A stretch of DNA of 1,659 bases from Naegleria gruberi. Lineage: Eukaryota. The position numbers and the translations under genes were made by a program. Position 1 is the first letter of the stretch, and the number at the start of each line of letters is the position of its first letter. Where the stretch lies: the NCBI GenBank assembly GCA_000004985.1, contig GG739354.1; one strand, given 5' to 3'. Under the pieces are notes generated by a model, which ran no database searches, was not told the origin of the DNA, and saw only the letters and a list, made by a program, of their open reading frames with translations. This document shows positions 690 through 1,659 of this stretch, piece after piece.

Positions 690-745
690 ATTTATTTATA
701 GTTATTTCCATATCTACTTTCGAGTTCATCGACCCCCCCGAAATG
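690..745 (+). promoter_or_regulatory. Candidate RNA polymerase I core promoter / transcription start neighbourhood at the AT-to-GC boundary
   Basis: Inference only. 'tttatttatagttatttccatatctactttcgagttcatcgacccccccgaaatg' spans the transition from AT-rich spacer to the GC-rich block and ends in a C7 run (733-739). Pol I promoters lie at the IGS/ETS junction in characterised rDNA units. I recognise no specific consensus. Confidence 0.2.
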
Positions 746-964
746 TCTGAACTTCAGTTCCTAACCTTGCGGACAGCAGGATCCTAAGGGATTACCCTCA
801 TCGAGGGTATCAACGCCCTTCGGAGCCCCCAATGGGTCAACCACCCGTTGGGGCCTGCTGTTCACACCGGGGGTCGGTAACCCTCCCCGCCTGATGAAGG
901 GCGGTGGGCACCCCCAGCCCTTGCGGCTGGGAGCCAAGGCAGCGCGTAACTGCGGGGCGCTGCT

Positions 965-980
965 AACCAACCAACCAAAC
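965..980. repeat. (CCAA)n microsatellite-like tract 'aaccaaccaaccaaac'
   Basis: Seen in sequence: three perfect CCAA units at 967-978. Confidence 0.8.
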
Positions 981-988
981 CTGACCCG

Positions 989-1031
989 CCACCAGCCAAC
1001 CAGCCCACCAGCCAGCCAACCACCAGCCACG
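989..1031. repeat. CA-rich low-complexity tract built from two imperfect ~20-nt units (991-1010 'accagccaaccagcccacca', 1011-1030 'gccagccaaccaccagccac')
   Basis: Seen in sequence: 'ccagccaac' occurs at 992-1000 and 1012-1020, and 'accagcc' at 991, 1007 and 1022. The 60-nt line 961-1020 has 30 C and 7 G. Confidence 0.7.
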
Positions 1032-1173
1032 CGCCCTCTGGCCCACCCAGGCCACGCGTGCGGTCGAGGCACCCTACAGCCAGCCGGCAGAACCCACGGC
1101 CATTCCCACGGCCAACGGTCCAACCCGCTGCCAGTCCTGACCCCAGGGCTGTCCAGGGAGCCTCCCGCGTGTG

Positions 1174-1183
1174 TGACCCGGGA
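1174..1183. repeat. Exact 10-mer 'tgacccggga', also at 1381-1390; both copies are followed by 'gagcc' (directly at the first, after a 'c' at the second), and the first contains a CCCGGG palindrome
   Basis: Seen in sequence: 1174-1186 'tgacccgggagcc' vs 1381-1396 'tgacccgggacgagcc'. Separately, 'gggagcct' occurs at 1156-1163 and 1180-1187. Confidence 0.6.
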
Positions 1184-1246
1184 GCCTAGGAGGGCCCCCC
1201 AACCGTCCGGCCCAACCGCTGCCCCTGGGGCCGATTCAGATACCTC

Positions 1247-1340
1247 AACCGCAGCCTTTTGGGCTGCCCACAGTCAAACCGCAGCCTTTTGGGCTGCCCA
1301 GATCCTACCAGCCTACCACCGCAGCCCTTTGGGCTGCCCT
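1247..1340 (+). repeat. Three direct copies of a ~24-nt unit (1247-1270, 1277-1300, 1317-1340), each a perfect GC stem-loop: GCAGCC-UUUUG-GGCUGC in copies 1 and 2, GCAGCCC-UUU-GGGCUGC in copy 3
   Basis: Seen in sequence: 'aaccgcagccttttgggctgccca' twice and 'caccgcagccctttgggctgccct' once. Stems are 1251-1256/1262-1267, 1281-1286/1292-1297 and 1321-1327/1331-1337. Unit starts are spaced 30 and 40 nt apart. Confidence 0.8.
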
Positions 1341-1370
1341 ACCACCACAGCCAGCGAAGCCTGGACCGAG

Positions 1371-1440
1371 GGGAAACCCTTGACCCGGGACGAGCCAGCT
1401 GTTTTTCAATATTGATTACCCGCATTAAGCGGGAAACCCT
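1371..1440. repeat. Exact 10-mer direct repeat 'gggaaaccct' at 1371-1380 and 1431-1440, spaced exactly 60 nt
   Basis: Seen in sequence. The second copy overlaps the 3' arm of the hairpin at 1420-1434. Confidence 0.6.
1420..1434 (+). other. Small stem-loop 'cccgc-attaa-gcggg' (5-bp GC stem, 5-nt loop) in the distal ETS
   Basis: Seen in sequence: a perfect inverted repeat. Any function, such as a pre-rRNA processing signal, is inference. Confidence 0.4.
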
Positions 1441-1460
1441 CGCAAGAGGAACCCCATACC

Positions 1461-1477
1461 TCAGAGACCCAAACGAT
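1461..1477 (+). other. Small stem-loop 'aaacga-ttcat-tcgttt' (6-bp stem, 5-nt loop) about 130 nt upstream of the 18S 5' end
   Basis: Seen in sequence: a perfect inverted repeat. Functional role unknown. Confidence 0.35.
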
Positions 1478-1605
1478 TCATTCGTTTAGGCTCAAATCGA
1501 GTTCATAATGGCAAACGGATGGATAGCCAGTAGGTGGTGCAAACCAACGAACGCTTGAAATCCAACCGGAGCGCAAACAAGGTAAAACTCGTTTTGCTCC
1601 AGTGA

Positions 1606-1659
1606 TACCTGGTTGATCCTGCCAGTACTATATGCTTGTCTCAAAGCCTAAGCCATGCA
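1606..1659 (+). rRNA. 5' end (partial) of eukaryotic small-subunit (18S-type) rRNA gene; the gene continues beyond the window edge
   Basis: Seen in sequence: 'tacctggttgatcctgccagtactatatgcttgtctcaaagcctaagccatgca' matches the universally conserved SSU 5' terminus and the EukA/NS1 primer region (canonical TACCTGGTTGATCCTGCCAGTAGTCATATGCTTGTCTCAAAGATTAAGCCATGCA), with a few substitutions and a 1-nt shortening. The exact mature 5' nucleotide (1606 vs 1607) cannot be fixed from sequence alone. Confidence 0.9.

Follow-up and report, generated by a model that had tools for sequence, protein, structure and literature searches.

We analyzed a 1,659-nucleotide stretch of Naegleria gruberi DNA (contig GG739354.1 of assembly GCA_000004985.1; hereafter the window), in which three copies of a GC-rich hairpin unit lie at 1247–1340, upstream of the gene for 18S rRNA. 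Position 1 of the Rfam SSU_rRNA_eukarya model aligns at 1606 on the + strand, and a search of the whole window at E ≤ 1 returned no family besides 18S, so none in the hairpin module. The base composition changes from a spacer at 20–38% GC (1 to ~720) to a C-rich block at 56–74% GC (~720–1400). The window is the junction of spacer, 5′ external transcribed spacer (5′ ETS), and 18S gene of the extrachromosomal circular plasmid that carries the ribosomal DNA (rDNA) of Naegleria (CERE), of the N. gruberi type. A preliminary description of this stretch, made from its letters, had placed the module in the 5′ ETS, ~270–360 nt upstream of the 18S gene; the measured distance is 269–355 nt, and the assignment to the ETS is very probably right, with the 18S gene on the same strand and the GC block beginning at ~720 with a start motif common to related contigs. 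The features on which the argument turns are these:

1606..1659, + strand: 5′ end of the 18S rRNA gene (Rfam RF01960, SSU_rRNA_eukarya, 55.8 bits, E = 8e-14)
1247..1270, + strand: hairpin unit copy 1, AACC-GCAGCCU-UUU-GGGCUGC-CCA; stem 1251–1257 with 1261–1267, closing pair U1257.G1261
1277..1300, + strand: hairpin unit copy 2, same sequence as copy 1 (100% identity); stem 1281–1287 with 1291–1297, closing pair U1287.G1291
1317..1340, + strand: hairpin unit copy 3, CACC-GCAGCCC-UUU-GGGCUGC-CCU; stem 1321–1327 with 1331–1337, closing pair C1327-G1331

Beside the window, the comparison set comprised 23 related contigs (L001–L023): 17 from a metagenome scan with the 41-nt 18S start as query (L001–L017), four from a look-up of the exact product of a 173-aa open reading frame (ORF) at 894–1415 (L018–L021), and two contaminating contigs from a scan of prokaryotic genome assemblies (L022 and L023). 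Viral contigs scanned for the hairpin unit gave 0 matches, and a search of the PLSDB plasmid database found no CERE, just stray 18S-like contaminants in bacterial records. The window and L018–L021, which are 99.3–99.9% identical, represent its own lineage (n = 5 independent assemblies); L009 is the closest other lineage, with 92% identity over 1278–1659. Negative positions are counted relative to the 18S start. In L018 (99.3% identical to the window), the small-subunit (SSU) rRNA gene is 2020 nt long without an intron, and internal transcribed spacer 1 (ITS1) is exactly 33 nt, as it is in L015; an ITS1 of 33 bp with a 5.8S gene of 175 bp is the common Naegleria state and typical of many species (PMC3167841). 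L002, a 14.2-kb contig, begins and ends in large-subunit (LSU) sequence, in keeping with a circular rDNA plasmid of ~14 kb, and the location of the rDNA on such a plasmid is established for Naegleria (PMC5805870). The contigs therefore present the features of the Naegleria CERE, namely a ~33-nt ITS1, a ~2.0-kb SSU gene, an optional twin-ribozyme intron, and a single unit on a ~14-kb circle.

The three direct ~24-nt copies are real and non-random. The pattern GCAGCC-N5-GGCTGC occurs exactly at 1251–1267, 1281–1297, and 1321–1337 and with 2 mismatches at 914–930, giving 4 matches vs 0.05 expected in shuffles. The copies form a direct-repeat family (D3, 24-nt unit) with spacings of 30 and 40 nt, in which copy 3 is 88% identical to copies 1 and 2. 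Isolated units fold at -11.6 kcal/mol (z = -3.1) and -13.3 kcal/mol (z = -3.8), and the fold of 1240–1345 (106 nt) that the preliminary description had called for gives z = -4.7. The minimum-energy fold resolves all three copies into a 7-bp stem with a UUU triloop, which corrects the stems of 6–7 bp and loops of 3–5 nt described earlier; the anatomy of the module was otherwise rightly described. Inside the hairpin, copy 3 departs from copies 1 and 2 by one loop-proximal T>C transition, which converts the closing pair from U.G to C-G; the shortened loop and lengthened stem once attributed to copy 3 reduce to this change. The transition is one-sided, no double compensatory change occurs within the window, and, of random substitutions in the 17-nt hairpin, ~5 in 17 would leave the 6-bp core intact; thus, the within-window argument for selection on RNA structure fails. 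The copies run head to tail and their number varies between relatives, as in a tandem repeat or minisatellite. Tandem Repeats Finder called no array at the module because the linkers, which are C/A-rich, differ (they are non-homologous).

In the equilibrium fold of the whole ETS, the 5′ arm of copy 1 pairs with the 3′ arm of copy 2 around a helix formed by the 3′ arm of copy 1 and the 5′ arm of copy 2. This nested pairing, which is preferred at equilibrium because the arms of the two copies are identical, has a probability of ~0.67 vs ~0.1 for the two local hairpins; copy 3 forms its local hairpin with a probability of ~0.8 in the same fold. Folding during transcription would presumably favor the local hairpins of copies 1 and 2.

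Lineages differ in how many copies they have. All five own-lineage assemblies have three copies, and the sole difference within the module is T1274C, in a linker, compared with 7–9 single-nucleotide polymorphisms (SNPs) in the spacer; as judged from these assemblies, the three-copy state is fixed in the window’s lineage. Two copies occur in L009, L013/L014, and L006/L007 and one copy in L015, L016, L008, L023, and L005. The hairpins of L009, GCAGCC(U)-UUU-(G)GGCUGC at -320 and GCAGCCC-UCUG-GGGCUGC at -286, align with copies 2 and 3 of the window, while L009 has no counterpart of copy 1 or of the ~65 nt preceding it. Comparison among the aligned contigs shows copies 2 and 3 to correspond to the two hairpins of related lineages and copy 1 to be a lineage-specific, recent tandem duplication (~30 nt) of copy 2.

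The module lies between two parts of the ETS:

940..1246, + strand: hypervariable ETS center, C/A-rich and of low complexity, with CCAGCC/AACC microsatellites at 965–1029; the module is at its 3′ edge
1344..1605, + strand: conserved 3′ ETS core, the last ~260 nt of the ETS, from an alignment of 12 lineages

A stable short hairpin is present at about -280 to -300 in every lineage compared, with differences in its loop, its copy number, and sometimes its stem sequence. The member of the module at this conserved position is copy 3 (~-285), which adjoins the strongly conserved 3′ core on the upstream side. The 6-bp stem core GCAGCC/GGCUGC is identical in the window, L009, L013/L014, and L006/L007, among which loops and linkers vary; the hairpins of L013/L014 and L006/L007 are GCAGCCC-UUCG-GGGCUGC and GCAGCCU-UUCG-AGGCUGC. 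Farther away, L008 has GGGCUGG-UUUU-CCAGCUC, which includes a G.U pair; L023 has GCGGCG-GUUU-CGCCGC next to the same CCACCGC flank, with two double changes; and L005 has GCGGC-CUA-GCCGC. The closing pair is C-G, U.G, or U-A among the clearly homologous copies, and the loops across lineages are UUU, UCUG, UUCG, GCAA, GUUU, UUUU, and CUA, of which UUCG and GCAA are extra-stable tetraloops. The U.G and G.U pairs together with these tetraloops point weakly to the sense RNA. A distant lineage (L003/L012/L017, ITS1 of 40 nt) contains four GUGCGCAC palindromes (GTGCGCAC) between about -330 and -225, ~22–30 nt apart; they fold, as two 8-bp hairpins in tandem (z = -5.5), immediately upstream of its conserved ETS core. 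Here, tandem GC hairpins in front of the core have occurred independently of those in the window, with an unrelated sequence.

RNAalifold applied to an unguided MAFFT alignment of -300 to -215 recovered the conserved hairpin at -244 alone and not the -285 helix, because loops of different length shift the stems out of register; a stem alignment (A3) was therefore registered by hand. In this alignment, whose rows were picked beforehand as hairpins, 98% of the cells are paired, double changes are seen at 6 of the 7 pairs, and none of 500 shuffles scores as high; slid registers fall far below the observed score.

Several observations, the RNAalifold result among them, weigh against a hairpin conserved by selection at this position. 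Since the rows were chosen as hairpins, the pair count is circular where homology rests on position alone, and homology is secure just for the window, L009, L013/L006, and L015 and plausible for L023. Two of the single hairpins have imperfect stems, with an A.A mismatch in L015, whose loop is GCAA, and a bulge in L016. The ETS holds about one short GC hairpin per 45–50 nt with a folding energy of -10 kcal/mol or better, a density at which finding one near -285 in every lineage is only moderately improbable by chance. Finally, the module hairpins are about equally stable on both strands (-11.6 vs -11.2 and -13.3 vs -13.8 kcal/mol), unlike the conserved hairpin at -244, for which the sense strand gives much the higher stability; the energetics are thus compatible with a palindrome that acts at the DNA level.

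Judged by the aligned contigs, the module goes back to a single ETS hairpin, conserved in position, that has multiplied in a lineage-specific manner. The reading that we prefer, with a probability of roughly 0.6, is that its hairpins are structural helices of the pre-rRNA leader, each autonomous, at the edge between the variable center and the core, where at least one hairpin is kept near -285 and multiplied by slippage or recombination. The helices would form as the leader is transcribed, and the few G-rich segments that this C/A-rich leader has would be held in local stems. Such stems may insulate the downstream core and the 5′ domain of the 18S rRNA from mispairing, so that these could then fold and bind their factors undisturbed; at most, the hairpins might offer processome proteins a generic helix surface. 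Selection would act on the presence of at least one stable short hairpin near -285 and not on sequence, loop, or copy number. Slippage or unequal recombination would have produced two copies in several lineages and the third (copy 1) in that of the window, and the triplication itself would be near-neutral and homogenized over the plasmid population. The earlier picture, in which three hairpins are conserved in structure and selected as processome sites, accordingly overstates the case: one hairpin near -285 is kept, but the three copies are not, since relatives have one or two.

An account with no role for structure, in which a palindromic unit multiplied as a neutral minisatellite in a slippage-prone region and the hairpin is a by-product of CAGCC meeting an inverted copy, seems to us unlikely. 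The setting suits it well: the module sits in the hypervariable C/A-rich ETS, where the GC block up to the 18S gene ranges from about 735 to 1600 nt by lineage, CAGCC is the dominant motif of the region (families D2 and D4), and hairpins are dense throughout. The differences in copy number between lineages, the identity of copies 1 and 2, the single transitions that set copy 3 apart, and the symmetric strand stability are in keeping with it as well. It is harder to reconcile with stems that stay paired while loops, linkers, and even the stem sequence change between lineages, and with loops that are repeatedly extra-stable tetraloops (UUCG with a C-G or U-A closing pair; GCAA). Moreover, the sense strand of the ETS (720–1605) is far more structured than its shuffles (z = -8.1 vs -5.4 for the antisense strand), and both the three copies and their sequence are invariant in five assemblies in which the spacer has accumulated 7–9 SNPs.

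The preliminary description had favored a specific processome signal, either a docking site for the U3 small nucleolar ribonucleoprotein (snoRNP), another small nucleolar RNA (snoRNA), or a nucleolin-type protein, or an A′/A0-like cleavage site; copy number would then act as dosage. A stable hairpin near -285 in all lineages examined, immediately upstream of the 3′ core, a stem core identical in four lineages despite variable surroundings, and tandem hairpins at the same place in a distant lineage are what such a signal would lead one to expect. However, the loops vary (UUU, UCUG, UUCG, GCAA, GUUU, CUA), the copy number runs from 1 to 3, and relatives do not conserve the “aacc”/“ccca” flanks in which a context for snoRNA docking had been proposed. 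Neither the loops of the window (UUU/UUUUG) nor those of its relatives (UCUG, UUCG, GCAA, GUUU) fit the nucleolin consensus (U/G)CCCG(A/G). The invariant single-stranded blocks that would suit pairing with U3 or another snoRNA, or binding of the processome, lie downstream, within 1395–1605 (1402–1415, 1455–1468, 1545–1575), and the module matches no Rfam family at E ≤ 1. We judge a dedicated processome signal to be distinctly improbable.

A more ambitious combination, about equally doubtful and perhaps slightly more so, would make the -285 hairpin an obligatory landmark of heterolobosean pre-rRNA, with multiplication of the copies tuning processing and copies 1 and 2 providing a switch. The hairpin might mark the entry or boundary of the SSU processome or an early A′-like cleavage just upstream of the core. 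Multiplication has arisen independently in gruberi-like lineages (the GCAGCC type) and in the distant lineage (the GUGCGCAC type), and it might adjust how efficiently pre-rRNA is processed where the rDNA is a single unit on a plasmid. With their identical arms, copies 1 and 2 could alternate between a pair of separate hairpins and a single extended, nested helix.

It is very improbable that the module is instead a DNA-level element, in which the dyad GCAGCC-N5-GGCTGC binds a dimeric protein or extrudes cruciforms and so affects RNA polymerase I (Pol I) elongation or pausing or the replication of the CERE. The palindromes do fold equally well on both strands, their carrier is a supercoiled plasmid present at about 4000 copies per cell (PMC11008152), and the spacer motif CGATTCAG occurs just 5′ of copy 1. 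Nevertheless, outside the close relatives the stem sequence is not conserved (L023, L008, L016, L005) while pairing is kept, and a DNA-level palindrome is disfavored because pairing persists where sequence does not. The U.G closing pairs and the G.U pair of L008 work in the sense-strand RNA alone, and stems of 6–7 bp are short for cruciform extrusion.

That the module is coding sequence or an intrinsic terminator or attenuator can practically be dismissed: the ORF at 894–1415 has 173 stop-free codons on the + strand, a repeated “AAFWAA”, and gene calls in four public assemblies (L018–L021), but it has no Pfam match, the ORFs of L009 and L014 lie in other frames with other ends, and stop-free frames are expected in an ETS of ~70% GC that is also rich in indels, while the hairpins, for all their GC-rich stems, are followed by CCCA or CCCU and not by a U-tract, a terminator scan is negative across 1200–1400 (its single site in the window, at 129–143, is outside the module), and stopping in the module would abort every pre-rRNA before the 18S gene. 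The 173-aa ORF is very likely spurious, and the hairpin-dependent termination raised in the preliminary description falls with the terminator. The ORF resembles an unexplained ORF upstream of the 18S gene in the CERE of N. gruberi EGB.

Around the module, the comparison extends to the remainder of the leader, in which three further features can be placed:

729..784, + strand: start of the GC-rich block, with TCGACCCCCCC (729–739) and CCTAACCTTGCGGACAGCAGGATCC (760–784), from local alignment to L009, L015, L013, L014, and L002
913..931, + strand: related ETS hairpin CCCAGCC-CUUGC-GGCUGGG (family D1), with the CAGCC/GGCUG core in common with the module
1214..1237, + strand: possible degenerate fourth unit, AACCGCUGCCCCUGGGGCCGAUUC, a ~62% match to the unit with a weak 4-bp stem, overlapping CGATTCAG

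Both TCGACCCCCCC and CCTAACCTTGCGGACAGCAGGATCC recur at the AT-to-GC boundary of the five contigs aligned. We take 729–784 as the presumed, promoter-proximal 5′ end of the ETS; it is the probable site of the Pol I promoter or of the transcription start, together with the first ETS helix. From the jump in base composition and the conservation of TCGACCCCCCC in 5 lineages, we infer a transcription start at about 700–730. The hairpin at 913–931 has a counterpart, CAGCC-GUGAA-GGCUG, at the corresponding place in L009. The possible fourth unit is a weak assignment, its register having been set by eye; family D1 covers 1216–1233 at 72%. Within the hypervariable center, a zone of (AACC)n and (CCAGCC)n repeats at 960–1030 is C/A-rich, with a GC skew down to -0.45; its G-poor transcript is expected to be unstructured and poor at R-loop formation.

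The 3′ core follows the module closely, with about 25 nt between the end of copy 3 (1340) and the first core hairpin (1363). Its helices include a GNRA hairpin at 1363–1388, CCCGC-AUUAA-GCGGG at 1420–1434, and CCUC-GCAA-GAGG; across 12 lineages, 13 of 42 pairs show double (two-sided) changes, as in the series CCCGC/GCGGG, CCUG/CAGG, UUGCG/CGCAG. Between the helices lie invariant single-stranded blocks, UUCAAUAUUGAUUA (UUCAAUAUYGAUUA) at 1402–1415, CAUACCUCAGAGAC at 1455–1468, and a third at 1545–1575, which are the best candidates for U3 hinge pairing and for A0/A1 signals. A literature search on the Naegleria ETS, U3, and promoter found nothing relevant.

Taken alone, the triplication matters little, being lineage-specific in a setting, the variable ETS, where repeated GC hairpins are common. 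The more useful outcome is that the 5′ ETS of Naegleria, previously unannotated, has been mapped by comparison for the first time; the map runs from a conserved start motif (~729–784) through a hypervariable C/A-rich center with short GC hairpins to a conserved 3′ core of ~260 nt. It indicates in which parts of the leader the Pol I promoter, the U3 sites, and the A0/A1 cleavages should be sought, information needed by groups now engineering vectors for N. gruberi and N. fowleri from the CERE.

Further observations concern the spacer and the plasmid. A direct repeat at 1–26 and 373–399, (C)TTTCGGAAT(T)CACTTTTTTTA, with ~373-nt spacing, looks like part of a longer spacer repeat unit cut by the start of the window. 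The motif (GAACGGCTG)CGATTCAG(AC) occurs at 216–237, 305–316, and 1232–1239, three times on the + strand vs 0.03 expected; the last of these is in the ETS and immediately precedes hairpin copy 1 on the 5′ side. The spacers of L009 (9 times), L015, L014, and L023 contain the motif too, for the most part on the + strand, and it is a candidate for a Pol I terminator, for an enhancer, or for a cis-element of the plasmid. The branching ribozyme GIR1 lies inside the SSU gene of L009, L023, L012, and L002; in the last three, the GIR1 match alone was checked, and the endonuclease ORF was confirmed in L009, where GIR1 adjoins a 254-aa His-Cys box homing endonuclease ORF (PF05551). The ~1.3-kb twin-ribozyme group I intron of L009 (~8130–9420) is inserted directly before the ...GCGGTAATTCC region of the SSU gene, and introns of this type are known solely from Didymium, Naegleria, and Allovahlkampfia (PMC3679873). 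Two Naegleria rDNA plasmid contigs were found in bacterial metagenome-assembled genomes, L022 (DYOB01000097.1, 9.4 kb) in one labeled Borreliella garinii and L023 (JARLHW010000166.1, 14.3 kb, with a GIR1 intron) in one labeled Desulfosporosinus sp.; both are eukaryotic contamination.

Published descriptions of Naegleria CEREs report numerous direct repeats and, for N. gruberi EGB, an ORF without explanation that lies upstream of the 18S gene, the repeats being BLAST-found, 34–2135 bp long, and located in “non-ribosomal sequence” (NRS) (PMC5805870, PMC7714845). The module lies in the same molecule and region, the ETS being counted there as NRS; it differs in that the ETS, its hairpins, and the promoter were neither annotated nor discussed in those studies (PMC5805870, PMC7714845).

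ETS sub-repeats and variable ETS helices are already known as a kind, and the module belongs there. In the rDNA of Solanaceae and Asteraceae, tandem sub-repeats occupy a variable 5′ ETS. As in these plants, short units are multiplied in a transcribed leader, their copy number varies between related species, and the variable zone is bracketed by conserved ETS segments. The Naegleria unit differs in being just 24–30 nt long, itself a perfect GC hairpin, and present in 1–3 copies, and its carrier is no chromosomal array but an extrachromosomal, circular plasmid that bears one rDNA unit. The nucleolin recognition element of the mammalian 5′ ETS has the hairpin loop consensus (U/G)CCCG(A/G); it resembles the module in that short hairpins are repeated in a 5′ ETS, whereas the Naegleria hairpins have no conserved loop motif (UUU/UUUUG in the window; UCUG, UUCG, and GCAA in relatives). 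In yeast, helices of the 5′ ETS scaffold the SSU processome and are bound by UTP-A, UTP-B, and the U3 snoRNP. Compared with these, the Naegleria helices are much shorter (7 bp), vary in number between close relatives, and are not known to contact proteins or U3. What the two leaders have in common is the presence of stable local helices upstream of the U3-binding and A0/A1 region, the position of the helix being conserved more than its sequence.

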